A stretch of 64,000 nt of DNA, filler included, from Candidatus Hydrogenedentota bacterium (GCA_040752395.1; 7 parts of 7 records of this genome joined end to end with filler, not necessarily neighbours in it); one strand, 5' to 3'. Numbered from the whole stretch's first letter, positions 9,565-60,943 are shown. The notes: generated by a model from the sequence alone, not told the origin. A program made the numbers and translations.

Positions 9565-9664
9565 NNNNNNNNNNNNNNNNNNNNNNNNNNNNNNNNNNNN
9601 NNNNNNNNTTAATTAATTAANNNNNNNNNNNNNNNNNNNNNNNNNNNNNNNNNNNNNNNNNNNN
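9565..9664. other. Artificial contig linker
   Basis: N-run, TTAATTAATTAA (stops in six frames), N-run; 100 bp. Confidence 0.99.
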
Positions 9665-13749: not shown

Positions 13750-13809
13750 ATTTTGACACTAAATATGATTTTTTATATAAAAGGCTTATGAGAGAGTTAA
13801 AGAAAAAGA
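13750..13809 (+). repeat. Duplicated ispB promoter and 5' end upstream of the TA cassette
   Basis: 13750-13796 is identical to 14654-14700 (47 bp); 13791-13809 is identical to 14740-14758. Confidence 0.92.
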
Positions 13810-13904: not shown

Positions 13905-14171
13905 ATGATATCAGAAAAGGATAAAGCAATAATATTGAAGTATGCAAAAAAATATAAGTTGACCACAGTAATTCTATTTGGTTCTTCTGTTGAGAAAGAA
14001 AACGCAAATGATATAGACATTGGTATAAAGGGGATCGAACCTGGACGTTTCTTTGAGTTTTATGGAGAATTATTGCTTTCACTCTCAAAACGGATAGATA
14101 TAGTTGATCTAAACAAAGAAAATTCTTTCAATAAATTGGTAGAAAAAGAAGGGATAAAACTCTATGGTTAG
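13905..14171 (+). CDS. Minimal nucleotidyltransferase (MNT) antitoxin
   Basis: ILFGSS...NDIDIG and RIDIVDL motifs, 88 aa. Confidence 0.88.
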   Translation: MISEKDKAIILKYAKKYKLTTVILFGSSVEKENANDIDIGIKGIEPGRFFEFYGELLLSLSKRIDIVDLNKENSFNKLVEKEGIKLYG

Positions 14172-14589
14172 TTTAAGAGAAAAAGTCAATGTTGAAATGG
14201 AGAATATATTTATTGTACTTGAGGAGTTAAAAAAGAATAAAGATAAACCTGACAAGACAGTTGTTGAATTGGCAGGTATAGGCGCATTTTTACATAATGT
14301 TTACAATGGAGTTGAAAATATCCTTAAACAGATATTAAGCTTTCAAGGTATCTCTATTCCAAATTCAGATTCGTGGCATCAAGATTTGCTAATAGAGGCG
14401 ACAGAGAAAGGAATTATTAGTGAGACCACAAAAAAACAATTGGCTAAGTATTTAGCATTCCGTCATTTTTTTATACATTCTTATGGATTTTTATTAGATG
14501 AAGAGGAATTAAGATTATTGGCTGATAATGTATTCGGCGTGTACTCATCATTTAAGAAAGAGATTGATGATTTTATTGCTAATCTTTAA
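14164..14589 (+). CDS. HEPN (HepT/DUF86-like) RNase toxin
   Basis: LHNVYNGVENI, WHQDLL and Rx4H motif RHFFIHSY; overlaps the MNT gene. Confidence 0.85.
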   Translation: MVSLREKVNVEMENIFIVLEELKKNKDKPDKTVVELAGIGAFLHNVYNGVENILKQILSFQGISIPNSDSWHQDLLIEATEKGIISETTKKQLAKYLAFRHFFIHSYGFLLDEEELRLLADNVFGVYSSFKKEIDDFIANL

Positions 14590-14656
14590 AAAATATGATG
14601 GACTTCAGCTAACAGCAGATTTACGATGTTTGTGATAAATCTGCCTGCGCTAGATT

Positions 14657-14685
14657 TTGACACTAAATATGATTTTTTATATAAA
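14657..14685 (+). promoter_or_regulatory. Sigma70 promoter of ispB, probably leaderless transcript
   Basis: TTGACA-N17-TATAAA, ATG begins 7 nt after the -10 box, no SD. Confidence 0.6.
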
Positions 14686-14691
14686 AGGCTT

Positions 14692-15648
14692 ATGAGAGAG
14701 ATTCTTGCACCCATAGCAAATGAACTCTCTTTATTTGAAAGAGAGTTAAAGAAAAAGATAGAATCGAGATTTAATTTTATTGAAGAACAATGTAAATATG
14801 TAATCTTCTCCAATGGGAAACGCATAAGACCGATACTAACCATGCTTTGTGGTCTTTGTCTGCACGTTAATTTAGATAAATTAATAAAGATTTGCTGTGT
14901 GATAGAACTTATACATAATGCAACTATTGTTCATGACGATGTTCTTGATAGATCAGATATAAGACGCGGAAATAAGACACTTAACTTTCTACATAATTCA
15001 AACATAGCTGTTCTAACAGGTGATTATCTTTTTTCAAAAACTATTGATACAAGTTTACAACTGAATAATCAAAAATTCAGCGAAGAGATAGCAAGAGTAT
15101 CTTCACTTATTTTCGAGGGCGAAGTAGAACAGTCTATTAATTCTTATAGAGTGATTGATAAGAAAAAATATATAGATATTATAAAAAAGAAGACCGGGAT
15201 GTTGTTCGGACTGAGTATAGCTTCTCCACTTTTATTTACAGATGATTGTCCGCGTATAAGTTATGAAAAATTATTTAGTGCAGGCGTTGATATAGGTACG
15301 TCTTTTCAGATAGTTGATGATGTTCTCGACTATACCTCTTGCGATACTCATTTGGGTAAACCTGTATATAAAGATTTGAAATCAGGTAAGATGACACTGC
15401 CTCTGATTTACACTTTAAAAAAATTAGAAGGTGGATTAAGAAACAAGGTCATAAAATACTTTATGCGGAATACGAATATTAAAACATTAAAAGAACTTGT
15501 GCATAATAATCATGGCGTAAGAATGTCTTTACGTACGGCAAAAAAACTTGTAAGAGATGCTGTTTGTAATCTGGATGTATTACCGGCTAATAGACACAGG
15601 AAGTCATTAGAAGAATTTATATTTTATCTTACAGACAGGAAGTTTTAG
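14692..15648 (+). CDS. ispB: Polyprenyl diphosphate synthase
   Basis: GKRIRP, VHDDVLD...RRG, KKKTG, FQIVDDVLD, GKMTLP. Start moved to ATG 14692. Confidence 0.88.
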   Translation: MREILAPIANELSLFERELKKKIESRFNFIEEQCKYVIFSNGKRIRPILTMLCGLCLHVNLDKLIKICCVIELIHNATIVHDDVLDRSDIRRGNKTLNFLHNSNIAVLTGDYLFSKTIDTSLQLNNQKFSEEIARVSSLIFEGEVEQSINSYRVIDKKKYIDIIKKKTGMLFGLSIASPLLFTDDCPRISYEKLFSAGVDIGTSFQIVDDVLDYTSCDTHLGKPVYKDLKSGKMTLPLIYTLKKLEGGLRNKVIKYFMRNTNIKTLKELVHNNHGVRMSLRTAKKLVRDAVCNLDVLPANRHRKSLEEFIFYLTDRKF

Positions 15649-18983: not shown

Positions 18984-19011
18984 TTGACAATTTTTATAAA
19001 TTATTTATAAT
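18984..19011 (+). promoter_or_regulatory. Consensus sigma70 promoter pointing into the repeat element
   Basis: TTGACA-N16-TATAAT about 20 bp before the first module. Confidence 0.55.
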
Positions 19012-19030
19012 TTTGATAGTTTGCTATTTT

Positions 19031-19187
19031 TCTTTACTTTTAACTTTTCAAAGGAGTACTCATGAGCGCGGGTTGCGCTCTACACAACGTATGAAAAACT
19101 AAAAATGATATGTTGGCTTCAGGCTCCGGGCTTCGGGCTCCAGCCGGCTGTAGCCCGTAGCCTGTAGCCCGAATTATTAGAGTTACA
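19031..19187 (+). repeat. Modular element copy, cut by contig end
   Basis: ACTTTTA module, core TTTTCAAAGGAG, REP-like hairpin, CAGCCGGCTG-centred heptamer hairpin, AATTATTAGAGTTACA. Confidence 0.9.
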
Positions 19188-19287
19188 NNNNNNNNNNNNN
19201 NNNNNNNNNNNNNNNNNNNNNNNNNNNNNNNTTAATTAATTAANNNNNNNNNNNNNNNNNNNNNNNNNNNNNNNNNNNNNNNNNNNN
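19188..19287. other. Artificial contig linker
   Basis: N-TTAATTAATTAA-N. Confidence 0.99.
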
Positions 19288-23724: not shown

Positions 23725-24615
23725 ATGATGAAATCAGAATGGATTGAAGAGTTTATTATTTTGTTAAGAGTTGAGGCTGGATTAACTGAAAATACACTTT
23801 CAGCTTATAGAACAGATTTAAAACAGTTTTATGAATATTTAGAAAAGAAAAACAAACTTGATAAAGAGGTTCAGAGAAGAGATTTACTCCAATATTTTTT
23901 ATATTTGAAAGAGTGGAGGGACTTATCCTTACGGAGTGTGGCACGTCATACTGTTACAATAAGGAATTTTTTTAATTTCTTATATAGAGAGGATAAAATT
24001 CAATTAAATCCCGCAGAAGATTTAGAATCACCGAGGATAGAGAAGCCGTTACCGACGTTTTTAACCGATGATGAGATGGAAAAACTTTTAAAACTACCTG
24101 ATAATAGAGACATATTCGGGATGCGAGACAAAGCTATGTTAGAGCTTTTATATGCTACAGGAATGCGAGTTTCTGAGATAATTAATATAAGAATAATAGA
24201 TTTAGACCTTAATGAAGGTTATGTTAGAGTAAAAGGCAAAGGTGAGAAAGAGAGAATAGTACCGATAGGGAGTGAAGCACTTGAAGCGGTAAAAATATAT
24301 TTACAGAAAGGTAGAAGAGAGTTAAAACCCGAAAATAATGAGGACAAACTTTTTCTTAATAAAAGTGGGAAGGTATTAACGCGACAGGGGTTCTGGAAAA
24401 TATTGAAACGATATGCAAGAATGAGCGGGAAAAGTGATATCACGCCTCACACCCTGAGACATACTTTTGCAACGCATCTCTTATCAAATGGTGCTGATTT
24501 AAGGAGTGTGCAGGAATTATTGGGTCACTCTGATATCAGCACAACTCAAATTTATACACATACAGACACTTCGCGACTTATTTCTGTACACAGGCAGTAC
24601 CATCCACGAGCATAA
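23725..24615 (+). CDS. xerD: Site-specific tyrosine recombinase XerD
   Basis: RDKAMLELLYATGMRVSE, TRQGFWK, TPHTLRHTFATH, LGHSDISTTQIYTH, C-terminal HPRA. Confidence 0.92.
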   Translation: MMKSEWIEEFIILLRVEAGLTENTLSAYRTDLKQFYEYLEKKNKLDKEVQRRDLLQYFLYLKEWRDLSLRSVARHTVTIRNFFNFLYREDKIQLNPAEDLESPRIEKPLPTFLTDDEMEKLLKLPDNRDIFGMRDKAMLELLYATGMRVSEIINIRIIDLDLNEGYVRVKGKGEKERIVPIGSEALEAVKIYLQKGRRELKPENNEDKLFLNKSGKVLTRQGFWKILKRYARMSGKSDITPHTLRHTFATHLLSNGADLRSVQELLGHSDISTTQIYTHTDTSRLISVHRQYHPRA

Positions 24616-26785: not shown

Positions 26786-27784
26786 TTATTTTTCGAGGAT
26801 AGTTTCTTCAACTGATAGACCGAAATGTCTGGCCGATTTTAATAGATAGCCAAGGACAGCATCACCTTTTTTAAGTGATACGACTGATAAAGGTTTACCG
26901 TGGGTGTTTACAAGTCTTATAGTTTCAGCGTTTTGGAGGATTATAGAGAATCTTTCAATAGTATTTTCAGTGTGTGCTTGGATATATAACATTGGTCTTC
27001 GTTCAATTTTAACTCTTCCCACGATACCAATTTGTGTTTCGCCTTTATAATTAACAATTAACACCTTATCACCTGATTTAAGTTCAGAGAGATAATTAGT
27101 TTTATTTTCAGGGGATAGGACGTATGCGTGTATACCGCCTGCATTAACTCTAAAAGGTCTTGGTTCTACGTATGGGTTTACCTCTGTTTCAGAATGGACA
27201 AAGAAGAGGCCCATAGAAGTATTACCGACGAGCATTCCCTCGCCGGGGTTCATTCGAGTACAGGTATCAACGCAAACTCTATCGCCCATACCTGCGGCAT
27301 CGACTTTATCGATAATAAATTTTTGGAGTTGGATTTTTGTTTTTGGGTATTTAACCTTTTGTATTGCTTTAGTTATATCCTGGATTTTAAAATTTTTAAG
27401 AACGACACCGCTTACGCCCTTCTCAAGTATACCCAGAGCCACTTCAAGTTCGGAGAGATTTTTAACAACAGCGAATATTTTATCGGACTGGGCGATAAGG
27501 TTTTCAAGAGGTATAATCATCCAGTCAGAAGTTTCAACTATAACGGTTTTATTTTTTCCTAACAAAGCTGCTTTTATTTCATCTTTTTTGTCAGTTATTT
27601 TGACTTCAACCACATTTTTACCGAGAATAATATCGCCATCAGGAGCGATTGTATTAATTCTTCCGAGTTCCTTAATTTTTTTCGTGTAGCCTTTATCAAC
27701 AATAATGGCGTCAGCACCTGATTCAAGAGCTGTTGTAGCAATTTTTTTATTATATGGTCTTACATCGACCCAGACAGTCTTCAT
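26786..27784 (-). CDS. 3-dehydroquinate synthase II (archaeal-type AroB')
   Basis: IPLENLIA, GDRVCVDT, RPFRVNAG, ILQNAETIRL, ARHFG. Confidence 0.93.
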   Translation of the reverse strand: MKTVWVDVRPYNKKIATTALESGADAIIVDKGYTKKIKELGRINTIAPDGDIILGKNVVEVKITDKKDEIKAALLGKNKTVIVETSDWMIIPLENLIAQSDKIFAVVKNLSELEVALGILEKGVSGVVLKNFKIQDITKAIQKVKYPKTKIQLQKFIIDKVDAAGMGDRVCVDTCTRMNPGEGMLVGNTSMGLFFVHSETEVNPYVEPRPFRVNAGGIHAYVLSPENKTNYLSELKSGDKVLIVNYKGETQIGIVGRVKIERRPMLYIQAHTENTIERFSIILQNAETIRLVNTHGKPLSVVSLKKGDAVLGYLLKSARHFGLSVEETILEK

Positions 27785-27787
27785 AAT

Positions 27788-28582
27788 TTATCCTTTTAAT
27801 ATTTTCATAGCTTCATTAACAGAGGCATTTTCGTGAACAATTGTACATATAGCGCGAACCATTTTTCTTGGGGATTCATGTCCAAAGGCATTACGTCCGA
27901 CAGCGACACCTTTGCCGCCTGCGGTGATAGAATCTTTTATTATAGAGAATATAAGTTTTTCATCTTTTATTTTTTCGCCGCCAGCGATAACAACCGGTAT
28001 AGGGCAGCTTGATACGACTTTTTCGAAAGTTTTAATAGAGCCTGTATAAGAGACTTTAACAATATCAGCTCCGAGTTCAGCAGCGATTCGTGCAGCGTGT
28101 TTTATACCTTCAGGGTCTGTTTCAGATTTAAACTTTTTACCACGAGTATACATCATTGCAAGGAGAGGTATCCCCCATTCATAACATTTAACAGATACCT
28201 CACCCAAATCTTTTAACATTTCATCTTCATTAAGAGCACCGATATTAATATGGACGCTGACCCCATCAGCCCCGAATTTTATTGCATTTTCCACAGTATT
28301 AACAAGCACTTTAGCATTTGGGTCAGGGCTCCATATAGTACTTCCTGATAAATGGAGTATGAGACCGATATCTTTGCCGTGTTTTCTATGGCCGTGGATA
28401 GGCAGACCGAGATGTCCGAGCACTGCGTTTGCGCCGCCCTCAGCAATTTCGTTCACCATATCCCGCATATTTTCTATACCACTGATAGGGCCTATTGTTA
28501 CACCGTGGTCCATAGGTACGATTACGGTCTTTTTTGTCTCTCTATTAATTATTCTTTCAAGTCTTATATACTTACCGAGCAT
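27788..28582 (-). CDS. 2-amino-3,7-dideoxy-D-threo-hept-6-ulosonate synthase (AroA', DhnA-type aldolase)
   Basis: IVPMDHGVTIGP, ELGADIVK, PVVIAGG, GRN; adjacent to AroB'. Start moved to ATG 28582 (MLGKYIRL). Confidence 0.9.
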   Translation of the reverse strand: MLGKYIRLERIINRETKKTVIVPMDHGVTIGPISGIENMRDMVNEIAEGGANAVLGHLGLPIHGHRKHGKDIGLILHLSGSTIWSPDPNAKVLVNTVENAIKFGADGVSVHINIGALNEDEMLKDLGEVSVKCYEWGIPLLAMMYTRGKKFKSETDPEGIKHAARIAAELGADIVKVSYTGSIKTFEKVVSSCPIPVVIAGGEKIKDEKLIFSIIKDSITAGGKGVAVGRNAFGHESPRKMVRAICTIVHENASVNEAMKILKG

Positions 28583-28589
28583 ATAGATA

Positions 28590-28762
28590 CCTCCTCTGAA
28601 AAACATTGTAACTATAATAATATCAAGTAGAAGCAAGAAGCAAGAAGCAAGATAAACAAACATCTAGTTTTTCATACGTTGTGTAGAGCGCAAAAGCGCT
28701 CATGTTGACTCCTTCGAAGAACGCTGTAACTCTAATAATTTCACGAAGTAAGAAGTGAGAAG
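28590..28762 (-). repeat. Modular element, head-to-tail arrangement
   Basis: Two copies of the 31-bp end motif (28591-28621 and 28709-28739, 25/31 identical) enclosing the REP-like hairpin and CAAGAAG repeats. Confidence 0.9.
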
Positions 28763-28862
28763 NNNNNNNNNNNNNNNNNNNNNNNNNNNNNNNNNNNNNN
28801 NNNNNNTTAATTAATTAANNNNNNNNNNNNNNNNNNNNNNNNNNNNNNNNNNNNNNNNNNNN
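28763..28862. other. Artificial contig linker
   Basis: N-TTAATTAATTAA-N. Confidence 0.99.
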
Positions 28863-28950: not shown

Positions 28951-29269
28951 AGGAGTACTCATGAGCGCGGTTTGCGCTCTACACTATTGTGTTCTTGGGT
29001 TATTGGGTTATTGGGTTATTGGGTTTTTGCGCTCTACACAATATATGAAAAACTAAAGATGATATAAAAAGAGTCGTGAGTCACAAGTCGCAAGTCGTGA
29101 GTCAAAACAGGACTCAAGACTCAAGACTTTTCAGCAGGTTCCGGGCTTTTGGCTCCAGCCGGCTGTAGTCCGTAGCCTGTAGCCTGTCCTGACACCTCTC
29201 ACTTCTTCCGTTATCTTGCTTCTTGCTTCTACTTGATATTATTAGAGTTAGAATGTTTTTCAGAGGAGG
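28951..29269 (+). repeat. Full-length modular element upstream of rpoZ
   Basis: All modules in order: REP-like hairpin, TTGGGTTA array, second GCGCTCTACAC, GAGTC/GACTC hairpin, CAGCCGGCTG hairpin, TCTCACT/TCTTGCT, 3' core with GGAGG. Confidence 0.93.
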
Positions 29270-29279
29270 TATTACTGAG

Positions 29280-29489
29280 ATGCGAGCGACTCTTGAAAAT
29301 TTGCAGGATAAAATCCCTAATAAATATAAATTATGTCTTGTTGCTGCAAGAAGGGCTAAAATGATTACAAACGGTGCACCACCACTGTTATTTACTAAAA
29401 ACATAAAGCCAACCACTATTGCACTTGAGGAGATACTTAACAAGAAAGTCACTATAAAAGAGGGGAAGAAATCCAAAAGTAAACAATGA
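29280..29489 (+). CDS. rpoZ: RNA polymerase omega subunit
   Basis: NKYKLCLVAARRAK, KPTTIALEEI; upstream of coaBC; start moved to ATG 29280. Confidence 0.92.
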   Translation: MRATLENLQDKIPNKYKLCLVAARRAKMITNGAPPLLFTKNIKPTTIALEEILNKKVTIKEGKKSKSKQ

Positions 29490-30685
29490 GTCATTTTACC
29501 GTAGGTTTAGGAATAACTGCAGGTATATCTGCATACAAAATCTTATATTTTGCTTCATTACTAAGAAAGAATGATTATAAAATAATCCCAATTCTTACAA
29601 AAGACAGTCTTAATTTTATAACCCCTCTTTCCTTGCAATCAATTTGTGACAACAGAGTCTATTTCAACCAGTTTGAATTAGTTGAGAATTATAATCCAGA
29701 ACATATAGCTATTGCCAGAGAATGCGATTTAATTGTTGTAGCGCCTGCAACAGCTGATTTTATATCTAAGATGGCTAGTGGTGCTGCTGATGAGCTATTA
29801 TTATCCGTGATTTTATCTTTCAAGAAAAAAGTAATAGTAGTTCCTGCAATGAACCCGGCAATGTATAATCATAAAGCAACAAGGAGGAATCTGGAACAGA
29901 TTGAAAGATATGGTTATAAAGTTATAGGTCCGGTGGAGGGCTGGAGTGCGTGCGGAGATTTTGGCAAAGGCAGGATGGTTGAGCCAGAAGATATATTTTA
30001 TTATATCGAGGAAGAGAGGGGCAGAATACAGGGTAGATTAAAAAATAAAAAAGTTTTGTTAACATCCGGACCAACCATAGAATTTATCGACTCGATGAGG
30101 TATATATCGAATTTATCAAGTGGGTTTATGGGTAAATTCATAGCTGAAGAATTAATTAGAGAAGGTGCGCTTGTTGAGATTATTTCAGGTCCTGTAAAAA
30201 TCAGTTATCCATCGGTTTGTTTGGTTACTAAAATTAGTTCTGCTATTGAGATGTTTAATCAAGTTAAAAAGAGAATCGCAAATAATGATTGTTTTGTAGC
30301 AGCAGCTGCTGTTAGTGATTATAGACCCGAAATAAAAGAAAAGATAAAATTACCTAAAAAAGATAGCATTGATATCAAACTTATCAAAAATCCTGATATT
30401 CTGGAGTGGGTGTCAAAGAATTATTTTAAGAAAAAGTTTATAGTCGGTTTTTCAGCTACTTCTAATTTGAAGGAGAGCCCACATCAAAAATTAAAGAATA
30501 AACCGGTGGATTTACTTGTTGTCAACCCTGTTGGAGTTAAGGGTAAAGGTCCTGGTGAAGAGATAAATGATGCGATAATTTATGATACCAATGCTAATAT
30601 ACTTAAAGAATTAGATTCTTTACCTAAAAAAGAGATAGCTCGACATCTGGTCGAGATGATTATTAACAAAAGTATGAGCCCATAG
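29486..30685 (+). CDS. coaBC: Phosphopantothenoylcysteine decarboxylase/ligase
   Basis: GISAYK, APATAD, PAMN, GKGRM, TSGPT, NLSSG, AAVSDY, NPDIL. Confidence 0.95.
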   Translation: MSHFTVGLGITAGISAYKILYFASLLRKNDYKIIPILTKDSLNFITPLSLQSICDNRVYFNQFELVENYNPEHIAIARECDLIVVAPATADFISKMASGAADELLLSVILSFKKKVIVVPAMNPAMYNHKATRRNLEQIERYGYKVIGPVEGWSACGDFGKGRMVEPEDIFYYIEEERGRIQGRLKNKKVLLTSGPTIEFIDSMRYISNLSSGFMGKFIAEELIREGALVEIISGPVKISYPSVCLVTKISSAIEMFNQVKKRIANNDCFVAAAAVSDYRPEIKEKIKLPKKDSIDIKLIKNPDILEWVSKNYFKKKFIVGFSATSNLKESPHQKLKNKPVDLLVVNPVGVKGKGPGEEINDAIIYDTNANILKELDSLPKKEIARHLVEMIINKSMSP

Positions 30686-30717: not shown

Positions 30718-31401
30718 ATGCAGAATGTTTTAAATAGAAGATATCAGGAAATAATGGATGATTTTATCGAGTATTTAAAATTTAGATGTGCAGAGGCTGA
30801 TATAAAGATTGATTATCATAAGATCGCGGAAAAAAACGAGGAGCTCTGGAATGAATTTGAAAAAAAGATAAAAGAGTGTAGAGATTGTTCTTTATATAAA
30901 AAGAGAAATAATGTTGTTCCTGGAGCAGGTAGCAGAAATTCGAAACTTTTAATAGTTGGCGAAGCACCCGGGGAGCAGGAAGATTTACAGGGGGTACCAT
31001 TTGTAGGGGCTGCTGGTGAACTCTTAACTAAAATATTAAACAGTATCGGGATTAAAAGAGAAAATATTTACATAACCAATATTATTAAATGCAGACCACC
31101 TAATAATAGAGAACCTTTTACAGAAGAAATAGAAGCCTGCAACAAATATCTGCAATGGCAGATAGACAGAATAAAACCCGCAATAATTTTAGCGCTTGGG
31201 AACTATGCTATTAAAACTTTAACAGGGGTCAAGGAGGGGATCACTAAAATTCACGGTGAAATATTTAACTATAGAGGTATACCTGTGATTGTTTCATTTC
31301 ACCCTGCAGCTTTATTAAGAAACGAGGTTTATAAGAGGCCTACCTGGCAAGATATGCAGAAATTGCAACAGCTACTCAAGGAAAGAGAAATAAAAATATG
31401 A
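30718..31401 (+). CDS. Uracil-DNA glycosylase family 4
   Basis: CRDC, GEAPG, PFVGAAG, KCRPPNNR, FHPAALLR. Confidence 0.93.
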   Translation: MQNVLNRRYQEIMDDFIEYLKFRCAEADIKIDYHKIAEKNEELWNEFEKKIKECRDCSLYKKRNNVVPGAGSRNSKLLIVGEAPGEQEDLQGVPFVGAAGELLTKILNSIGIKRENIYITNIIKCRPPNNREPFTEEIEACNKYLQWQIDRIKPAIILALGNYAIKTLTGVKEGITKIHGEIFNYRGIPVIVSFHPAALLRNEVYKRPTWQDMQKLQQLLKEREIKI

Positions 31402-32078
31402 GAGATTTTAAGATTGTTGGTTGTATAGAGGCTGATAGACCGGTTTTTAAAGCTAAATTAGCAAAAAGGTATGGAGCAGATTTAGTGGAAGTCCGGGTTG
31501 ACCTTCTTAAAAACTATAAGAATTTAAAATATATACTAAAAAATATTAAAAATAAAATAAAGATCGGAATTATATTAACAGTAAGAAGCAAAATTGAATC
31601 AGGGATACAGGGAAAGGGGCTGGATGATAATTTGCTGGTACAATTATATAATGAGGGATTAGAGTTTGCAGATTATGTTGATATCGAGATTTCATCAATA
31701 AAAGTAATGGAGAGCATTATTGATAGAATACGAAAAGAGAAAAAAAGACTCATTTTAAGTTATCATAACTTTAAATGTTTACCACGAAATTTAAATAGAG
31801 TTATTGAAAAGATGAAGAAGATAAAGAGTGATATAAAAAAGATAGCTGTAAGACCATCAAATATGACTGATATAATAAAACTTGTTAAAATATTGAAATC
31901 AAACAGGGATATGGTTATAATAGCGATGGGTAAGGAATATGAGATGACACGTGTTTTTTTCCCATTATTAGGTAGTAAATTTGTTTATTGTGCTATAGCT
32001 AAAGCTACAGCCCCTGGTCAGTTAAGTTTGCGTTCTCCGGTTATAGCATTACTAAAGGGAGATAAAAACTATGTATGA
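31398..32078 (+). CDS. aroD: Type I 3-dehydroquinate dehydratase
   Basis: VEVRVD, ILTVR, DIE, LSYHNF, IAMG, TAPGQ. Confidence 0.88.
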   Translation: MRDFKIVGCIEADRPVFKAKLAKRYGADLVEVRVDLLKNYKNLKYILKNIKNKIKIGIILTVRSKIESGIQGKGLDDNLLVQLYNEGLEFADYVDIEISSIKVMESIIDRIRKEKKRLILSYHNFKCLPRNLNRVIEKMKKIKSDIKKIAVRPSNMTDIIKLVKILKSNRDMVIIAMGKEYEMTRVFFPLLGSKFVYCAIAKATAPGQLSLRSPVIALLKGDKNYV

Positions 32079-38334: not shown

Positions 38335-38434
38335 NNNNNNNNNNNNNNNNNNNNNNNNNNNNNNNNNNNNNNNNNNNNTTAATTAATTAANNNNNNNNNN
38401 NNNNNNNNNNNNNNNNNNNNNNNNNNNNNNNNNN
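38335..38434. other. Artificial contig linker
   Basis: N-TTAATTAATTAA-N. Confidence 0.99.
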
Positions 38435-41220: not shown

Positions 41221-42687
41221 TTGAAAGTTGTGAAGCGGTTAAACGAACTTTTAGAAGGTATAGAATACAAGGTCTTATCAGGTGACCCGGTTAACACACT
41301 AATAAACGAAGTAACAAATGATTCAAGGGCTATAACACCTGGTGCGCTCTTTATCTGTATTCAGGGAGAGAAAGCCGATGGCCACCGGTTTGCCGGTGAC
41401 GCGGTGCAACAGGGTGCAAAAGCTCTAATTGTTGAAAAAAAAGTAGACGTCGCAGAAAACATCACACAAATACTCACAGCAAACACACGCAGCATACTAC
41501 CAGTTATTGCAGCACGATTCTTCGAAGAACCGACAAAGCATTTAAAAGTAGCAGGCATCACAGGAACAAATGGTAAAACAACCACAGCCTTCGCACTCCA
41601 GAAGATCCTACAGACTTCAGGAGTGCGAACCGGGTTACTTGGGACCATCGGTTATTATCTTCCTTCTGGTTGCAAAAAACCTTTTCTTACAACACCAGAT
41701 GCAATAGAATTACAGAGATATTTTAAGATATTCAGAGACAATGGTTATCAATCAGTGGTGGTTGAGGTTTCATCCCATTCACTTGCTCTTATGCGCGTTG
41801 AATCTGTCAGATTTGATAAAGTTGTGTTTACAAATTTATCCAGAGACCATCTTGATTTTCACAAGAATATGGAAGATTATTTTAGTGCCAAAAAAAGGTT
41901 ATTTGACCTTGTAAAGACAGAGAACAGATACGCCGGTGTTGTGAATAATGACGACGAGTATGGTAGAAGATTAAAAAAAGATGGAATCCTTTCTTATGGC
42001 CTGACTGAATCTTCAGAAGTAAAAGCAGAAAATATACGATTGGGTTTAAATAAAACTGAGTTCTCTATCATCTTCCCTGATAAAAATAGTATTGATATCT
42101 CTACTGAATTACTTGGTTATCCAGCTGTGTATAATCTGTTATGCGCAGCCTCCTGTACATATACTATGGGTATTAATCAGGAGATTATCAGGAAAGCCCT
42201 GTTAGAATTTGAAACGCCGCCAGGCAGGTTACAAAATGTGACACCACAAAAAGAATTTTCAGTAATAATAGATTATGCTCATACACCGGATGGGTTGAAA
42301 ACGGTTTTATCCTCAATCAAGGCTATGAACCCCAATCGTATCATAACGCTTTTTGGTTGTGGGGGTGATAGAGACAGGGGCAAGAGGCCATTAATGGCAA
42401 AGGAGGTAGAAGAGTATAGTGATATAATAATTGTGACGAGTGATAATCCAAGGACAGAGGACCCGGAGAAAATTATTGAAGATATATTTAAAGGGTTTAC
42501 AAAACCTGATATTGTTATTAAAATTACTGATAGGAGAGAGGCTATTAATAAAGGTTTACAATTATTAAAAAAAGGAGATATTTTTCTTATAGCAGGCAAA
42601 GGCCACGAGGATTATCAAATCATAGGAACTGAAAGGATACCTTTTAACGACAGAGAGATTGTTATGCAACATTTTGGCAGGACATAG
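41221..42687 (+). CDS. murE: UDP-MurNAc-dipeptide--DAP ligase
   Basis: GITGTNGKTT, TTPDA, EVSSH, DYAHTPD, SDNPR (DAP-type), AGKGHE. Confidence 0.96.
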   Translation: MKVVKRLNELLEGIEYKVLSGDPVNTLINEVTNDSRAITPGALFICIQGEKADGHRFAGDAVQQGAKALIVEKKVDVAENITQILTANTRSILPVIAARFFEEPTKHLKVAGITGTNGKTTTAFALQKILQTSGVRTGLLGTIGYYLPSGCKKPFLTTPDAIELQRYFKIFRDNGYQSVVVEVSSHSLALMRVESVRFDKVVFTNLSRDHLDFHKNMEDYFSAKKRLFDLVKTENRYAGVVNNDDEYGRRLKKDGILSYGLTESSEVKAENIRLGLNKTEFSIIFPDKNSIDISTELLGYPAVYNLLCAASCTYTMGINQEIIRKALLEFETPPGRLQNVTPQKEFSVIIDYAHTPDGLKTVLSSIKAMNPNRIITLFGCGGDRDRGKRPLMAKEVEEYSDIIIVTSDNPRTEDPEKIIEDIFKGFTKPDIVIKITDRREAINKGLQLLKKGDIFLIAGKGHEDYQIIGTERIPFNDREIVMQHFGRT

Positions 42688-42695
42688 GTAAACCG

Positions 42696-44087
42696 ATGGA
42701 ACAAAAGAAGATTGAAGAATTATTAACTAAAGAATTTAAAATAGTTCAAGGCAGTGGTAGTAAAATAATAAGTAATATCTCAACTGATAGCCGCTCCATT
42801 TCATATAATGAGATGTTTGTTGCATTAAAAGGTGAATACTTTGATGGTCATAATTTTATAGAGGATGCTGTTAAAAAGGGTGCAGCTGCTTTACTTGTAA
42901 GTAATCAATATGAAGTACCAGAATGGTTAGCAAGACATGAGGATATAACGGTTGTCAAGATATTTGATACTCTTTATGGTCTTGGCGAGCTCGCGAGGGT
43001 TTATCGAGCAGGGTTTCAGATACCGGCAGTTGGTATTACTGGCTCTAATGGTAAGACATCAACAAAAGATATGCTTGCTGCTATTTTATCACAGAAAGAA
43101 CCAATCACAAAAACCATTGGAAATCTAAATAATTTAGTGGGGGTTCCACTTACCCTTTTCAGAATCAGCTATGAGACTGGTTTTATTGTTGCAGAGATGG
43201 GGATGAGTCAACTGGGTGAGATAAAAAGATTAACTGAGATCCTTAATCCCGATGTCGGTATAGTCACAAATATTGGTGAAAGCCATCTTGAATTTTTAGG
43301 TGATGTTTTAACTGTAGCCAGAGGCAAAAAAGAGATGATTGAGATGATGGCTGAGAAAGATACAATTATTGTTAATGCAGACGATGTATTCCTTGACACA
43401 TTGATCTTGGGATTTAAAGGTAAAGTTATAACTTTCGGGATCAACAGTGAAGCTAATTTCAGGGGAGAGAATATAAAATTAAGCAAAGAATCAACTGAAT
43501 TTACTGTTAATGGATTGAGGATAAATCTGAAAATAGCAGGATATCATTTTGTCTATAATGCCTTAAGTGCGATAGCAGCAGCAAAACACTTTGGTATAAC
43601 TGATAATCAGATAAAGGAGGCATTAGATAATATTAAGCTATCACCGATGAGAATGGAGCTCATTGCAGCAAAACAATATCTGATTATTAATGATTCATAT
43701 AATGCAAACCCACGTTCTATGAGAGCTGCCCTGAGAACTTTTTATGACATACCGCTTGAGGGCAGACGGGTTCTTATACTTGGTGATATGCTTGAATTAG
43801 GGCCTCAATGCATCGATTTACATATTGAGCTCGGCAAAGAGATTGATAAAGAAAAGATAGATTTACTTATTACTTATGGTGGGCTTGCATCCTTTATTAT
43901 TGAGGGAGCGATAGAATCAGGGTTTGATAAAAGCAAAATAAGAGCCTTCAAAGATAAGGAGGAGTGTATAAATTATTTAAAGAATGTATTAAAGGAGGGT
44001 GACAATATACTTGTAAAAGGCTCACGCGGTATGAAAATGGAAGAGATAATTGATGGGATAGCAGGGTCAGGTGGTAGGGAGATGTAA
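42696..44087 (+). CDS. murF: UDP-MurNAc-tripeptide--D-Ala-D-Ala ligase
   Basis: TGSNGKT, EMGMS, DSYNANP, GDMLELG, KGSRG. Confidence 0.96.
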   Translation: MEQKKIEELLTKEFKIVQGSGSKIISNISTDSRSISYNEMFVALKGEYFDGHNFIEDAVKKGAAALLVSNQYEVPEWLARHEDITVVKIFDTLYGLGELARVYRAGFQIPAVGITGSNGKTSTKDMLAAILSQKEPITKTIGNLNNLVGVPLTLFRISYETGFIVAEMGMSQLGEIKRLTEILNPDVGIVTNIGESHLEFLGDVLTVARGKKEMIEMMAEKDTIIVNADDVFLDTLILGFKGKVITFGINSEANFRGENIKLSKESTEFTVNGLRINLKIAGYHFVYNALSAIAAAKHFGITDNQIKEALDNIKLSPMRMELIAAKQYLIINDSYNANPRSMRAALRTFYDIPLEGRRVLILGDMLELGPQCIDLHIELGKEIDKEKIDLLITYGGLASFIIEGAIESGFDKSKIRAFKDKEECINYLKNVLKEGDNILVKGSRGMKMEEIIDGIAGSGGREM

Positions 44088-44088
44088 T

Positions 44089-45213
44089 ATGTTTTATCAT
44101 TTAGTTTACAAATTATCTGTATATTTTTCACCATTTAATGTTTTTAAATACATAACATTCAGGACTGCGTATGCTGCTATTACAGCGTTTTTGTTCTGTC
44201 TTATAGTAGGACCTTATTTTATCAAAAAATTGAAAGAGATGAAGATACAGCATCAACGGGGTGAAGAAAAATTAGACCATCATCTTGACAAAGTAGGAAC
44301 ACCGACTATGGGTGGTGCGCTTATTTTAGGTGCTATATTTTTTTCAATGATACTCTGGGGAAATTTTGCAAATGTTTATGTCTGGATAGTTCTCATTGTT
44401 TCTCTATTACTCGGCATTGTGGGTTTTGTTGATGATTATCTTAAATGGACGTATGCTGATTCAAAAGGACTCAAAGCACATTATAAATTTTTAGCCCAGA
44501 TAGTTATTGCTACTGGAGTAGCAGCTTATTTATACATTTATCCTATCAAGGGATTAAATCTATGGAGTCCGGAAAGATTTATTGATATGAAGTTTGGTTA
44601 TTGTTTAACAGCCCCGTTTCTGAAAAATTTTGTAGTCTATCTTGGAGTATTTTATATCCCCTTTGTAGTTCTTGTTATAGTAGGTTCTTCGAATGCCGTG
44701 AATCTTACAGATGGTCTTGATGGTCTTGCGATAGGATGTGTTATTTTTACAGCTTTAGCTCTTTCTGTCTTTACGTATCTTACAGGACATTTTAAGTTCT
44801 CGCAATATTTGAATTTAAATTTTATACGAGAGAGTTCGGAGCTTACTGTTTTTTTAGGTGCAATGATAGGTGCAGGGATGGGGTTCTTATGGTTTAATGC
44901 ACACCCGGCTTCTATATTTATGGGTGATACCGGCTCATTATCACTCGGCGGAGTTATAGGGACCATCGTAGTCCTTATAAAACAGGAGATTGTCTTACTG
45001 ATCATAGGTGGGATATTTGTGATAGAGGCTTTATCGGTTATTCTTCAGGTGGCATATTTTAAAATAACCGGTGGAAAAAGATTATTTATGATGTCACCCA
45101 TACACCATCATTTCGAATTAAAGGGATTACATGAGTCAAAAATTATCGTAAGATTCTGGATAGTTGCAATATTATTAGCATTAATAGGACTCAGTACAAT
45201 TAAATTACGTTAA
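44089..45213 (+). CDS. mraY: Phospho-MurNAc-pentapeptide transferase
   Basis: GTPTMGG, NAVNLTDGLDGL, FMGDTGS, PIHHHFE; start moved to ATG 44089. Confidence 0.97.
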   Translation: MFYHLVYKLSVYFSPFNVFKYITFRTAYAAITAFLFCLIVGPYFIKKLKEMKIQHQRGEEKLDHHLDKVGTPTMGGALILGAIFFSMILWGNFANVYVWIVLIVSLLLGIVGFVDDYLKWTYADSKGLKAHYKFLAQIVIATGVAAYLYIYPIKGLNLWSPERFIDMKFGYCLTAPFLKNFVVYLGVFYIPFVVLVIVGSSNAVNLTDGLDGLAIGCVIFTALALSVFTYLTGHFKFSQYLNLNFIRESSELTVFLGAMIGAGMGFLWFNAHPASIFMGDTGSLSLGGVIGTIVVLIKQEIVLLIIGGIFVIEALSVILQVAYFKITGGKRLFMMSPIHHHFELKGLHESKIIVRFWIVAILLALIGLSTIKLR

Positions 45214-45219
45214 AGAACA

Positions 45220-46626
45220 ATGAAACTAAACAAGGTAAAAAACGTAGCAGTAATCGGCGCAGGTCAAACAGGCATTGATATCAGCACATACCTTGTTAAG
45301 AATAATATAAATGTTTTGTTGAGTGAGGCTAATAAAGACGTAATTATAAACCCGAGATTAATAAAGAACAGTTATTTTAGATATGAGATTGGTAAAAATA
45401 GTGAGAAATGTCTTGAGAGTGATCTGATTATACCTTCACCCGGGGTAAGCCCGGCTAACAAAATTTTAATAAAAGCAAAAAAGAATGACCTGCCTGTTTT
45501 ATCAGAGATTGAGTTTGCGTTTTTAAAATATACTGAAAAGAGGACATACAAAAACATAGTTGCGGTCACAGGAACAAACGGTAAAACAAGCACAGTGCAG
45601 ATGATAGAATTTATATTAAATAAATCAGGTATCAAAGCAGTTGCTTGTGGAAACATTGGAGACCCATTTATCAATTACGTTAATTACAAAGGTATAATTG
45701 TTCTTGAAGTCTCAAGTTTTCAACTTCATTACTCGTTTAAGTTTAGACCTTATATCTCGGTACTTTTAAATATAGATGAAGACCACATCGAGTGGCATAA
45801 AACTTTTCAAAACTACATAGAAGCCAAAAGGAAATTATTTAAAAATCAGAACCCAAAAGACAGAATGGTCTTAAATTTCGATGATAAAAGGGTATTAGAC
45901 CTAACAAAGGGTATACGAGTTAGAAAATATTATTTTTCGCAAACTCCTCTTCCACTTTGCAAGAACGAGTTTGATACCGCAACATACGAGTTTGAAAATG
46001 GATTAATCCTCAAAGATAAAAAGATTATTCATATTATAAATTATAAAAAGTATAACGAATATGAATTCAATATATCAGGGATACAAGGTATATTTAGAAA
46101 GAATGCTTTAGCTTCACTTCTGGTATGTCAGATACTGGGGATTGATGTACCAACCGGTATAAAAAAATTATCTGATTTTTCTGTAGGGGACCATAGACTT
46201 GAGACATTTTACAGGAATAATGGGATTACTTATATAAATGATTCAAAATCAACAAATCCTCTATCTGTTATAGCTGCAATTGATAGTATGAATGATAAGT
46301 TTGTATTAGTCATTGGAGGATATGAAAAGGGGCTCGACTACAAAAATGTAAAAAATAGAATAAAAAATTCATTATGTGTTGGTTTAATTCTTTATGGTCC
46401 GCTCGGAAAAAGAATTCACAAAGAATTCAGCAAAGATTTATCAATTAAGACTATACTTGTAAATAGAATAGATGATACAATTGAAGCAGGAGTAGAGATA
46501 TTAGATGGCAGCGGTATATTTCTCTTTTCCCCTGGAACCTCGAGTTTCGATTCTTTTGATAATTATAAAGAACGAGGGGACTATTTTAAAAGGAGAGTCA
46601 GAGAATGGTTAAAGACGAAGAAGTAA
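45220..46626 (+). CDS. murD: UDP-MurNAc-L-Ala--D-Glu ligase
   Basis: SPGV, VTGTNGKT, EVSSFQL, HRLE, NDSKSTN, SFDSF.NYKERG. Confidence 0.95.
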   Translation: MKLNKVKNVAVIGAGQTGIDISTYLVKNNINVLLSEANKDVIINPRLIKNSYFRYEIGKNSEKCLESDLIIPSPGVSPANKILIKAKKNDLPVLSEIEFAFLKYTEKRTYKNIVAVTGTNGKTSTVQMIEFILNKSGIKAVACGNIGDPFINYVNYKGIIVLEVSSFQLHYSFKFRPYISVLLNIDEDHIEWHKTFQNYIEAKRKLFKNQNPKDRMVLNFDDKRVLDLTKGIRVRKYYFSQTPLPLCKNEFDTATYEFENGLILKDKKIIHIINYKKYNEYEFNISGIQGIFRKNALASLLVCQILGIDVPTGIKKLSDFSVGDHRLETFYRNNGITYINDSKSTNPLSVIAAIDSMNDKFVLVIGGYEKGLDYKNVKNRIKNSLCVGLILYGPLGKRIHKEFSKDLSIKTILVNRIDDTIEAGVEILDGSGIFLFSPGTSSFDSFDNYKERGDYFKRRVREWLKTKK

Positions 46627-47729: not shown

Positions 47730-47768
47730 TTAAGATAACGAAAGAAGCAAGAAGCAAGAAGCAAGATA
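47730..47768 (+). repeat. CAAGAAG heptamer module between ftsW and murG
   Basis: AAGATAACGAAAGAAGCAAGAAGCAAGAAGCAAGATA. Confidence 0.8.
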
Positions 47769-47881: not shown

Positions 47882-47981
47882 NNNNNNNNNNNNNNNNNNN
47901 NNNNNNNNNNNNNNNNNNNNNNNNNTTAATTAATTAANNNNNNNNNNNNNNNNNNNNNNNNNNNNNNNNNNNNNNNNNNNN
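47882..47981. other. Artificial contig linker
   Basis: N-TTAATTAATTAA-N. Confidence 0.99.
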
Positions 47982-48293
47982 AAGTAGAAGCAAGAAGCAA
48001 GATAACGGAAGAAGTGAGAGGTATCAGGACGGGCTACAGGCTACAGGCTACGGACTACAGCCGGCTGGAGCCAAAAGCCAAAAGTCTGCTGAAAAGTCTT
48101 GAGTCTTGAGTCTTGAGTCTCGAGTCCTGTTTTGACTCACGACTTGCGACTTGTGACTCTTTTCATACTTTGTGCCTCTGTGCCTCTGTGCCTTTCCCTT
48201 CTGTCTCCTGTCTCCTGTCTTCTTTCTGCCTTTGCCTGCCTGCCGCGGCGGAGTGCGGCGCAGGCAGGTGCCTCTGTGCCTGTGCCTTCGTGC
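47982..48293 (-). repeat. Modular element with extra TGTGCCTC and CTGTCTC arrays and a CCTGCCTGC palindrome
   Basis: Reverse complement of the standard modules to about 48167, then 8-mer and 7-mer arrays with CCTGCCTGC...GCAGGCAGG at 48235-48268. Confidence 0.9.
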
Positions 48294-48394
48294 TTAATAA
48301 ATGCCTTAAGCATTCACTTGAACCCTAAAAATGATGCTTTTAAAAAAGAGCTGGAAAAATTATTTAATTATGTTAATATATTATTATAATTCTT

Positions 48395-52061: not shown

Positions 52062-52148
52062 ACATCTTGCTTCTTGCTTCTTGATATCCCCTCAGTCTAC
52101 TACGGGTCTTGTGACCCTCACTACTCTGTGTCTCTTTCGTTATCTTAT
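52062..52148 (-). repeat. CAAGAAG module interrupted by a GTAG-REP-like hairpin
   Basis: Minus strand AAGATAACGAAAGA [..GTAGTGAGGGTCACAAGACCC..] CAAGAAGCAAGAAGCAAGAT; compare the uninterrupted 47730-47768. Confidence 0.7.
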
Positions 52149-52163
52149 AATTAAGCAGTTACA

Positions 52164-52913
52164 TCATAAATTGGCTTTTTGTAATATCTGCTCCGGGATA
52201 TCCATATTGGTAGTAACCTTATTAATGTCATCGAGTTCTTCAAGCGCTTCTATTAATCTCATATTTTTTTCTGCTGTCCCTATATCAATCTCAGTATAAT
52301 TATCCGGAACGAGGTTAACATCAGCTTCTTTAATTTCAAATTTAAAATCTTGTAAACCTTTTTTTACTTTTTCAAAATCTTCAAATTCAGTTTTTATAAT
52401 AATTTCATCCTCATCGACCTCAAAATCAGAGGCTCCACTATTAATAGCAACATCAAGTATCTCTTCTTCTTTGTCAGATTTTTTAATAATAATAACACCC
52501 CTGCGTTTAAAATTCCATGCCACAGCACCGCGTTCAGCCAGACGCCCATTATGTTTGCTGAATATATTTCTTACCTCAGAGGTTATCCTGTTTTTATTAT
52601 CAGTAACAGCTTCAACTACGATAGCTATGCCTCCAGGGCCATATCCTTCATAAATAATATCTTCATAGTTCACACCTGGTAACTCACCTGTACCCCGGGC
52701 AATAGCCTTTTTAATGTTATCCATCGGCATATTAGCTTCTCTGGCTTTAGTAACCACGAGTCTGAGTCTCGCATTTGAATTTATATCACCGCTCCCACCT
52801 GTTTTAGCAGCTATTGTTATTTCTTTGGCAAGTTTAGAAAATAATTTTCCCTTTTTAGCATCCTGGTTCTCTTTTTGTCTTTTAATCTTACTCCATTTGG
52901 AATGTCCTGACAC
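52164..52913 (-). CDS. yebC: YebC/PmpR family protein
   Basis: MSGHSKW, YEGYGPGG, TDNKNR; upstream of ruvC. Confidence 0.95.
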   Translation of the reverse strand: MSGHSKWSKIKRQKENQDAKKGKLFSKLAKEITIAAKTGGSGDINSNARLRLVVTKAREANMPMDNIKKAIARGTGELPGVNYEDIIYEGYGPGGIAIVVEAVTDNKNRITSEVRNIFSKHNGRLAERGAVAWNFKRRGVIIIKKSDKEEEILDVAINSGASDFEVDEDEIIIKTEFEDFEKVKKGLQDFKFEIKEADVNLVPDNYTEIDIGTAEKNMRLIEALEELDDINKVTTNMDIPEQILQKANL

Positions 52914-52925
52914 AGTGTAAATCTA

Positions 52926-53406
52926 CTCCTCTGAAAAACATTGTAATTATAATAATATCAAGTAGAAGCAAGAAGCAAGATAACGGAAGAAGTGAGAGGT
53001 ATCAGGACAGGCTACAGGCTACGGACTACAGCCGACTGGAGCCCAAAGCCCAAAGCCTGCTGAAAAGTCTTGAGTCTTGAGTCTTGAGTCTCGAGTCCTG
53101 TTTTGACTCACGACTTGCGACTCATGACTCTTTTCATATCATCTTTAGTTTTTCATGCTTTGTGTAGAGCGCAAAAACGCAATAACCCAATAACCCAATA
53201 GTGTAGAGCGCAACCCGCGCTCATGGGTACTCCTTCGAAAAAGTTCGGAGCTCGGAGTTCGGAGCTCGGAGTTCGGAGCTCGGATCTATTATTACAAACT
53301 CCTAACTTCTAACTCCTATGACAAGTTAAAAGTAAAAAGTCAAAAGTTAAAAGTAAAGAAAGCGAAAATATACACTTCCTTGCCGTATCTTTCAATCTTT
53401 GAATCC
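52926..53406 (-). repeat. Full-length modular element plus three upstream modules
   Basis: 52926-53243 standard series with the core at both ends; 53244-53317 GGAGTTC/AACTCCT hairpin; AAAAGTT array; ATCTTTCA module. Confidence 0.93.
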
Positions 53407-57363: not shown

Positions 57364-57463
57364 NNNNNNNNNNNNNNNNNNNNNNNNNNNNNNNNNNNNN
57401 NNNNNNNTTAATTAATTAANNNNNNNNNNNNNNNNNNNNNNNNNNNNNNNNNNNNNNNNNNNN
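57364..57463. other. Artificial contig linker
   Basis: N-TTAATTAATTAA-N. Confidence 0.99.
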
Positions 57464-59751: not shown

Positions 59752-60943
59752 AAAAATTACAAAATTATTATTGCTACTATTTTTCTTCTTTCTACCAATC
59801 TCAATCACTCTGTCCGAGATTTTTGGTTTCTTATCTTTTCTAACAGCTATTTTTATTATGGTTCAGCATAATACACCATATTACAAACCATCGAAAAATA
59901 TTGTAATCTCTTTAACATTACTTATTTTAATGCTGATACTATCTGTAGTTTTTTCTAAAGATACAGGTTTGAGTCTGAATTACTTGAAAAGACACTGGAA
60001 ACTTTTGATACCTGTAGGTGTTTTTTTACTTGTAAGCATTGATAATGATTTTTTTATTAAAATTATAAAATCATTTCTTTGTGGTATTATTTTATCTATC
60101 ATAGCCATTATTATCTCAGAATTTTTTTCAATTGAATTTTTAGATAATTACGATTTTTCTTATGGTTTCTTAAGAAAGAATGCTGCCGGAGTTATGTATA
60201 TCTATGCCGGGATATGGACGGCTATATCTATTATGAAAAAAGATTTAATAAAGTATATAGTTTTTATTTTAACTCTGGGTCTGTTAGTTCTTCTTGATAT
60301 AAGAGAATCGGTTTGTGGTTTCCTGACTGCTATGATTACTTATTTTGTTTTATCAAATAAAAAAGTAATAATCACTTGTTGTGTTATCATATTAGTTATA
60401 GGTATCTTGTTTACAGGCAAAGGTAAATATTTTATAAGGGGAGATAATGGTTCTATTACTGGCAATGTTCTTGACAGATTCGGTGCCTGGAACAGATGTT
60501 TTGAATTATGGAAGAAAAATCCTGTCTTTGGTCTTGGAATGAGTGTATTTGATAAAATTAATCACGATTTTATCTGGGAGAGAAAAGGATTTATTAAATC
60601 AGGTCCAATCACACCTCATTCTATGTATATCAAAGTTCTCATTGATGGCGGTATAGTTGGCATATCATTATTTGCTGGATTCTTATTTTATCTTTTAAAA
60701 GAATTACACAGCCTATTCTATTCTATTAAAGATAATGAGTTGTTAAGAGGTGTATGGTTATCATTATTTTCAAGTTTTACAGGTTTTTTAACAGTGGGGT
60801 TTTTCAACGAATGTTTTACAGATGCTGAGGTTTTCTTACTTGTATTCAGTTTTTACAGTGCTGGTGTGGCTTATTTGAACGTTAACTACACACTTCAGAT
60901 TGCAGACTACGGGCTACGGGCTACGGACTCCAGCCGGCTGTAG
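59735..60943 (+). CDS. O-antigen ligase family protein (WaaL-like)
   Basis: Multi-TM; DRFGAW, NPVFGLG, PHSMY...GGIVG; C-terminus encoded by the repeat. Confidence 0.78.
   Translation: MLQQSKKITKLLLLLFFFFLPISITLSEIFGFLSFLTAIFIMVQHNTPYYKPSKNIVISLTLLILMLILSVVFSKDTGLSLNYLKRHWKLLIPVGVFLLVSIDNDFFIKIIKSFLCGIILSIIAIIISEFFSIEFLDNYDFSYGFLRKNAAGVMYIYAGIWTAISIMKKDLIKYIVFILTLGLLVLLDIRESVCGFLTAMITYFVLSNKKVIITCCVIILVIGILFTGKGKYFIRGDNGSITGNVLDRFGAWNRCFELWKKNPVFGLGMSVFDKINHDFIWERKGFIKSGPITPHSMYIKVLIDGGIVGISLFAGFLFYLLKELHSLFYSIKDNELLRGVWLSLFSSFTGFLTVGFFNECFTDAEVFLLVFSFYSAGVAYLNVNYTLQIADYGLRATDSSRL

Follow-up and report, generated by a model that had tools for sequence, protein, structure and literature searches.

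Repeats that bring expression signals to the genes beside them are known but rare. The closest described cases are the Neisseria REP2 and the Borrelia IR-A/IR-B repeats, which in the account of Delihas (2011, PMC3184786) are interspersed, 120–150 bp long and furnished with internal stem-loops, without terminal inverted repeats. According to the same account, they lie immediately upstream of unrelated genes and supply them with a promoter, a ribosome-binding site (RBS) and an ATG. Here we describe an intergenic repeat from a Candidatus Hydrogenedentota bacterium, seen in a single 64-kb stretch of DNA, hereafter the window. Like REP2 and IR as portrayed there, it stands directly upstream of genes and holds their RBS (6 of 6 tails, 6–12 nt before the start codon). 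Unlike those elements, which include the gene's ATG, its copies cease to resemble each other at the Shine-Dalgarno (SD) pentamer, beyond which spacers and start codons differ. Whereas REP2 and IR contain the promoter, the tails of this repeat match 8–9 of the 12 sigma-70 consensus positions, a consensus that may not be that of the host. It also differs, in a comparison made by description and not by sequence, in having an SD core at both ends, head-to-tail chaining and hairpins built of heptamer repeats.

A second relevant group is formed by the MIRUs, short repeats located inside operons and co-oriented with the genes (PMC12548453; PMC3184786). As PMC12548453 presents them, they are believed to be mobile elements that enter at the start of a gene while leaving its translation intact, their internal ORF being coupled to the gene by a -4 overlap. 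The present repeat is likewise intergenic within operons and co-oriented, in 10 of 10 large copies. In contrast to the ORF reported to run through the MIRU unit, all three sense frames stop in the linker of copies A and H, and a MIRU-like start/stop overlap is found in one head only, that of copy J, whose ATG overlaps the trpC stop. Unlike in MIRU coupling, translation would restart from the SD borne by the repeat.

Heptamer direct repeats of the TAACTGA type occur as intergenic tandems in Beggiatoaceae, cyanobacteria and Bacteroidetes (MacGregor 2015, PMC4679880). In that description the sets are mostly forward, lie close to start codons and vary in copy number by 7-nt steps; they overlap the RBS or take its place, and they bear little resemblance to an SD (PMC4679880). 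Tandem heptamers of variable copy number in intergenic DNA near gene starts are also what we observed here; unlike in the sets so described, they form complementary hairpin arms within a larger unit that ends in a strong SD. Cyanobacterial STRR repeats are grouped with the intergenic heptamer direct repeats as well.

REP/BIME elements are mosaics of short structured motifs with variable internal modules, transcribed with their neighbours; REPs themselves are GC-rich palindromes of small size that mostly lie 3' of genes and whose orientation alternates inside a BIME (both as summarized in PMC3184786). The modular mosaic of structured motifs and the variable number of modules recall this group. 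However, compared with that summary, the units found here are longer (120–450 nt), keep one orientation relative to genes and are anchored 5' of them. BOX is another modular mosaic repeat of the REP/BIME kind.

The same short sequence at both ends is also a feature of integron cassettes with core sites and of IS200/IS605-type single-strand transposition. The present repeat shares with these systems one core per junction, co-oriented arrays, strand-specific hairpins and a lack of terminal inverted repeats and of a variable target duplication. Neither IntI nor attI was seen in the window, where the copies are dispersed. There was no Y1/HUH transposase among the 60 ORFs scanned in the window, and of the subterminal hairpins of IS200/IS605 a left-end hairpin is present (53206–53222), while no comparable GC-rich right-end hairpin was found; a mechanism of the IS200/IS605 or RAYT type may nevertheless apply. 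The concept of repeats that bring translation signals is known from REP2, the Borrelia IRs and MIRUs, and the architecture here differs; as for MITEs, REP/BIME and integrons, membership of each fails on a defining feature.

The window and the locus of copy A

The window comprises seven contigs of 9.4–9.6 kb, the last of them cut by its end. They are ordered by falling size and separated by linkers of 100 nt, each a six-frame stop spacer between runs of N, at 9565–9664, 19188–19287, 28763–28862, 38335–38434, 47882–47981 and 57364–57463, across which no feature can be read. The G+C content is 33.7%. It should be noted that this is a sample of 64 kb from one draft genome, in which contig breaks within repeats may bias the set of visible copies.

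The 318-nt copy at the centre of this work, copy A, lies inside contig 6 (47982–57363). It is flanked by a 125-aa ORF, at the end of a fliA-fapA cluster, and by yebC-ruvC-dapA, all on the minus strand. The gene fed by its 3' core is yebC (52164–52913, minus strand; Pfam PF01709 and PF20772), with a GTG start at 52913. An earlier, sequence-only reading of the window had given the copy an extent of 52926–53243. The 3' limit holds, as the core ends at 52926; on the 5' side, the repeat array runs on beyond the copy to about 53375.

Anatomy of the repeat unit

The two ends of copy A share an SD-containing core, as the sequence-only reading had stated: 53242–53228 and 52938–52924 (minus strand) are identical at 13 of 15 positions. 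The core proper has 13 bases, namely five T, one C, two purines and the SD pentamer. When the window was searched with a degenerate 15-mer allowing at most one mismatch, 5 matches were obtained against 0.07 expected, and 0 of 100 shuffles gave 5. The 5' core (53230–53242, minus strand) agrees with the 3' core at 11 of 13 positions and is a weak match to the profile of the tails. The 3' core itself (52926–52938, minus strand) shows the T-run, the C, the two purines and the SD pentamer 12 nt before the GTG of yebC, and on this layout we propose that it is the working RBS of that gene.

Between the two cores, and always on the minus strand, the unit opens with a head mini-ORF of 23 codons (53153–53224) that starts 5 nt past the 5' core. 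A GC-rich, 6-bp hairpin, H0, begins at the last base of the head ATG (53206–53222). It is followed by a block of octamer repeats with a second copy of the hairpin's right half-site (53162–53200; period 8 at 53172–53200), which is optional, being missing from the short copies D, F and J. The linker comes next (53134–53156) and has stops in all three sense frames, the stop-to-stop frames ending at 53153, 53145 and 53134; the linker of copy H likewise closes all three, and closure is achieved within about 22 nt in both A and H. The idea of a conserved mini-ORF peptide was rejected: the head mini-ORF is not a gene, because its length and frame vary from copy to copy.

The second half of the unit contains two hairpins whose arms are heptamer repeats, H1 (53063–53132) and H2 (53005–53060), the latter with such repeats in both arms and with G-U pairs on the sense strand. 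Then follow a pyrimidine-rich block with heptamer repeats (52962–53004; period 7 at 52964–52980) and the tail module (52926–52966; nhmmer E=9.6e-13), an AT-rich stretch plus the 3' core, which is the best-conserved module of the family in a nine-copy alignment. An 8-nt segment in the T-run region of the tail (52932–52939) is perfectly complementary to one in the linker (53148–53155), 208 nt upstream, and both segments are conserved in the family. Such a pairing would bring head and tail together.

More repeat modules lie 5' of copy A (53243–53375, minus strand): a 14-mer tandem block, a complementary arm and a 5' module common to copies D and G. The repeat spans of this 5' array are 53242–53284, 53297–53318 and 53323–53354, and its 5' module matches 19029–19057 by blast. 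Just before the head of copy A, a weak terminator-like hairpin with a T-run is found on the sense strand (53267–53248), and it could confer some polarity on the array. Upstream of the whole array there is a sigma-70-like promoter match with 10 of 12 consensus positions (53367–53395, minus strand).

A family of repeats in intergenic DNA

Blast of the copy A locus against the window revealed 9 further large copies, hence 10 in total, spread over 6 of the 7 contigs before unrelated genes. Moreover, a profile of the last 41 nt, built from 7 tails, gave 9 matches in the window at E<=0.0042, which are the 7 training tails and two tails cut by contig ends. In the nine-copy alignment the order of the unit is core, start codon 5 nt on, 6-bp GC hairpin, optional octamer block, linker, H1, H2, heptamer-repeat pyrimidine block and AT-rich tail ending in the core. 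This order and the number of copies can be read directly from the sequence. Unit sizes range from 120 to 450 nt: in the short copies F and J the linker is joined directly to the pyrimidine block, copy D is without H1, and copies I and C are without a head. Similarity between copies runs from the core before the head to the SD pentamer of the tail, and the aligned flanks are unrelated. A variant arrangement was noted in copy B (48170–48300, minus strand), in which a different 5' module, composed of a GC-rich palindrome and of repeated octamers and heptamers, stands in the place of the head; a portion of this module recurs, inverted, downstream of copy C near 3560–3600.

Common modules make up 2391 of the 6403 nt (37%) of intergenic DNA in the window and are present in 18 of its 36 intergenic regions. 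Given that 5 of the 12 internal contig ends fall within copies, the family is likely to be frequent throughout the genome and to interrupt its assembly; it would thereby explain the short contigs of this genome.

Searches outside the window returned no relatives of the repeat. Rfam gave no family at gathering score, just two chance-level hairpin matches (E 0.39 and 0.66). A scan of genome contigs with a 21-mer of the tail produced 5 matches in unrelated taxa, about the chance expectation, and a scan of metagenome contigs with a 24-mer of the tail produced one eukaryote-like chance match (L006). There were 0 matches in viral contigs to head and tail patterns, none to the repeat in plasmids by blastn, and nothing was found with a pseudo-protein from the antisense strand of the element. 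The closest non-self YebC homologue is 57% identical, with named matches from Omnitrophota, Nitrospirota and Caldiserica MAGs; at so low an identity, the organism has no close relative on record.

Orientation of the repeats and neighbouring genes

All ten large copies lie in the sense of the adjacent gene or genes, in agreement with the co-orientation proposed earlier. Both orientations occur within single contigs: on contig 1, copy C is minus and copy J plus, and on contig 3, copy E is plus and copy F minus, each matching the local gene. Orientation therefore follows the genes and not one DNA strand. The antisense occurrences are limited to small fragments of the pyrimidine block, before murG (47743–47768) and ruvC (52064–52081); these pyrimidine/heptamer fragments are purine-rich on the mRNA, and a weak SD follows each of them. 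On the antisense strand, H1 is terminator-like in 3 of 3 copies scanned, a property that could lead to selection against inverted insertions.

Copies are also found between genes of an operon, as illustrated by copy J after trpD-trpC and by copy I between the Wzy_C and methyltransferase genes. At the former site, the last residues and the stop of trpC lie in the tail remnant and head of copy J (9440–9468), the IGPS domain ending at residue 249 of 256. At the latter, the stop codon of the Wzy_C-domain ORF falls within H2 of copy I (60902–60943).

The family matters for annotation, because the longest ORFs upstream of several genes wrongly start in the repeat. For example, those of the PilZ gene (19437) and of the aldolase gene (28606–28663) begin inside the tail or the unit. 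A spurious antisense ORF of 126 aa (29114–29494) covers rpoZ together with a tail.

The 3' core as the putative RBS of the downstream gene

The sequence-only reading had taken the 3' core for the RBS of the next gene, and this is well supported by the sequence, since 6 of the 7 tails with visible 3' sequence precede a start codon. The seventh, tail F', runs directly into unit F, where the mini-ORF start of the head follows it, and one core is common to both. The spacer after the core measures 11 nt for PilZ (TTG start at 19464), 8 nt for the DeoC-family aldolase gene aroA' (28582), 11 nt for rpoZ (29280), 7 nt for an ORF at 38316, which is a 19-nt stub cut by a contig end, 12 nt for yebC (GTG, 52913) and 6 nt for the methyltransferase gene (61104). 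The short spacing claimed earlier is thus observed, while the range of 7–12 nt has to be widened to 6–12 nt by the methyltransferase gene. The 12-nt spacer of yebC is longer than usual for an SD and counts against the reading of its core as an RBS. In addition, a mini copy, in which the start of the pyrimidine block is joined directly to the core, stands before a 445-aa ORF (start 16443) with a spacer of 7 nt. The labels given to the PilZ, aldolase, RpoZ, YebC and methyltransferase genes all find Pfam support; that of AAA for the 445-aa ORF does not, with 0 Pfam families at E<=0.001. An ATG within the tail and in frame with the gene occurs in 3 of 5 copies, a number that chance could produce.

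Predicted binding to the anti-SD is stronger for the tail-fed genes, with a median of -9.2 kcal/mol for the 6 of them vs -4.0 kcal/mol for 55 others, even though the most favourable candidate start was taken for each of the latter (p=0.0014). Tails provide three of the window's four strongest SDs, the top three included. By these binding predictions, the repeat supplies unusually strong SDs where most genes of the genome have weak ones.

We consider it fairly probable that copy A is a unit of a modular, strand-specific intergenic repeat family, chained head-to-tail, in which each unit ends in a portable RBS. A unit would start just past an SD core with a start codon and a GC hairpin, continue with optional hairpin modules having heptamer or octamer arms, and then pass through the three-frame-stop linker and the pyrimidine block into an AT-rich tail ending in the same core. 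Each unit would follow a leader or a further unit in head-to-tail fashion, and every junction would have a single core, so that both ends of any copy carry the core. Arrays would belong to the transcripts of the flanking genes, either as a 5' UTR or as an intercistronic spacer, and the last core of each would be the SD site of the next gene, a strong one among mostly weak ones. If ribosomes indeed use this core, as we infer, the repeat would act as a portable leader for translation initiation, and a unit lying between two co-directional genes should still allow the second of them to be translated.

Unit junctions and the possible spread of the repeat

The six heads (A, D, F, G, H and J) are all preceded in the alignment by a core or a degraded core. 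A complete tail, F', is found before head F (E=1.2e-11) and a 20-nt tail remnant before head J (a weak match, E=4.1); core-only matches precede heads A and D, and remnants with indels, judged by eye, precede H and G. Each unit junction has one core. One core per junction, together with tail-like remnants before heads, fits insertion or recombination at the core, by which the units may have spread. The single core per junction is also consistent with the proposal of the sequence-only reading that the element may insert at SD sites and regenerate the RBS. Moreover, the same SD core at both ends, the single core per junction and the strict co-orientation point to a spreading tied to the translation start signal. 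Were such a mechanism true, it would provide a clean natural example of an insertion harmless inside operons, and a ready-made portable RBS and insulator cassette.

Terminal inverted repeats are absent: none of the 12 inverted-repeat pairs in 52915–53255 joins both termini, these pairs being the internal H1, H2, short palindromes and one 8-nt T-run/linker match. No copy-specific target-site duplication was seen, the core sequence being the same in all copies aligned. Furthermore, in all four complete copies (A, F, G and H) the head core does not have the same two variable purines as the tail core, and beyond the core the alignment shows nothing common to both ends; the purine mismatch and the lack of further shared sequence both argue against duplication of a variable target.

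As a tentative extension, of rather low probability, the unit may be a non-autonomous mobile element for which the SD site serves as the attachment or cleavage site. It would insert one-way just 3' of an SD-containing core, and its own 3' core would keep an RBS at the native distance, the old SD then facing a decoy start closed by the hairpin and the three-frame stops. Arrays would grow by self-insertion, because the element's own end is the target. If true, insertion at SD sites would be a way of transposing whose very design leaves translation unaffected. The 60 ORFs scanned in the window yielded no transposase, four long ORFs of the dcw cluster (41221–46626) lying outside the Pfam scan; the sole recombinase among the scanned ORFs is encoded by an Xer-like tyrosine recombinase gene (23725–24615).

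Probable transcription and predicted RNA structure of the arrays

The tails match 8–9 of 12 sigma-70 consensus positions, which may not be the consensus of the host, and no match is listed in the tail of copy A. With so few positions matched, the comparison lends no support to a promoter inside the tail. A perfect match (12 of 12, 16-nt spacer) was noticed at 18984–19011 on the plus strand, 33 nt before the head core of copy D, and the organism therefore appears to use canonical promoters. Since the better promoter matches lie upstream of arrays and the weak ones in tails, the arrays look like 5' UTRs or intercistronic spacers and not like promoters. We thus infer that they are transcribed.

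The predicted fold of the copy A array is more stable on the sense strand (-166.2 kcal/mol, z -4.97) than on the antisense strand (-140.0 kcal/mol, z -3.54). Across 8 copies, H2 has 20 consensus pairs, several of them G-U pairs on the sense strand; 0 of the 20 showed compensatory changes, and covariation is uninformative here. Pairing of the pyrimidine block with the SD was predicted in silico in several copies. The SDs of tail-fed genes tended to be predicted less accessible than those of other genes (0.29 vs 0.40 unpaired), a difference that is not significant (p=0.12; a second accessibility comparison gave p=0.26). Sequestration of the SD by the pyrimidine block is accordingly left as an idea.

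These features lend some weight to another reading, which we hold to be unlikely, that the repeat is no selfish element but a cis-regulatory leader under selection, retained before particular genes. The hairpins, the pyrimidine block or the core would then be the target of some shared RNA-binding protein, RNase or small RNA. The strand-specific structure and the predicted pairing of the pyrimidine block with the SD agree with it, as does the variation of heptamer copy number among copies, which could tune expression; Neisseria REP2, as reported in PMC3184786, offers a precedent. However, the tails serve genes without a functional relationship (PilZ, shikimate aldolase, rpoZ, yebC and methyltransferase), their SDs are not significantly more occluded than those of other genes, and module content varies freely among copies. 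In addition, the trpC and Wzy_C ORFs that run into the repeat look like insertion damage and not like design.

Origin of the Shine-Dalgarno pentamer

When the 22 nt before each start were inspected, an exact SD pentamer was present for 5 of the 6 tail-fed genes, compared with 3 of the 56 remaining genes (Fisher p=5e-5). On this evidence, the pentamer belongs to the repeat and is not the native SD of each gene. We consider it improbable that the pentamer is each gene's native site and that the repeat, which would end at the T-run, survives where it happens to land just upstream of an SD. Such a view would account for the unrelated sequences 3' of the pentamer and for the spacing that varies from 6 to 12 nt, and the organism does use SDs, a match of at least 4 nt being present upstream of 25 of the 56 other genes. 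Yet besides the excess of the exact pentamer before tail-fed genes, exactly two purines separate the T-run from the pentamer in every one of the 7 tails, and the same arrangement is found before heads, where no gene follows.

It is very improbable that the repeat is a MITE of the usual kind, in which case it would be a reduced DNA transposon bounded by terminal inverted repeats, and its shared ends would be a target-site duplication. Its copies are indeed small, non-coding, numerous, intergenic and assembly-interrupting, but the termini are joined by none of the 12 inverted-repeat pairs, the core is constant in every copy, the two variable purines disagree between the ends of every complete copy, and the scanned ORFs include no transposase. 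Finally, an artefact of assembly or concatenation, with copies and junctions arising from mis-joined repeats in a draft metagenome assembly of seven contigs joined by linkers, 5 of whose 12 internal ends lie in copies, is hardly credible given that unique genes surround copies A, C, H, I and K in the interior of contigs, that copies differ in module content and point changes, and that the junctions between tails and gene starts are unique sequence.

Other features of the window

Alongside the repeat family with its proposed portable RBS, the window contains other loci worth recording. At 26786–28582, genes for a DeoC-family aldolase and for DHQ synthase II make up a pair of the archaeal type (aroA'/aroB') for entry into the shikimate pathway, and a type I dehydroquinase gene is found at 31398–32078, on another contig than this pair. 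A perfect 47-nt direct repeat (13750–13796 and 14654–14700) brackets an MNT (Polbeta nucleotidyltransferase)/HepT-like toxin-antitoxin pair (13905–14589), and its second copy reaches the likely start of a polyprenyl synthetase gene. From this arrangement, the MNT/HepT-like pair looks like a cassette inserted with duplication of the 5' region of the polyprenyl synthetase gene.
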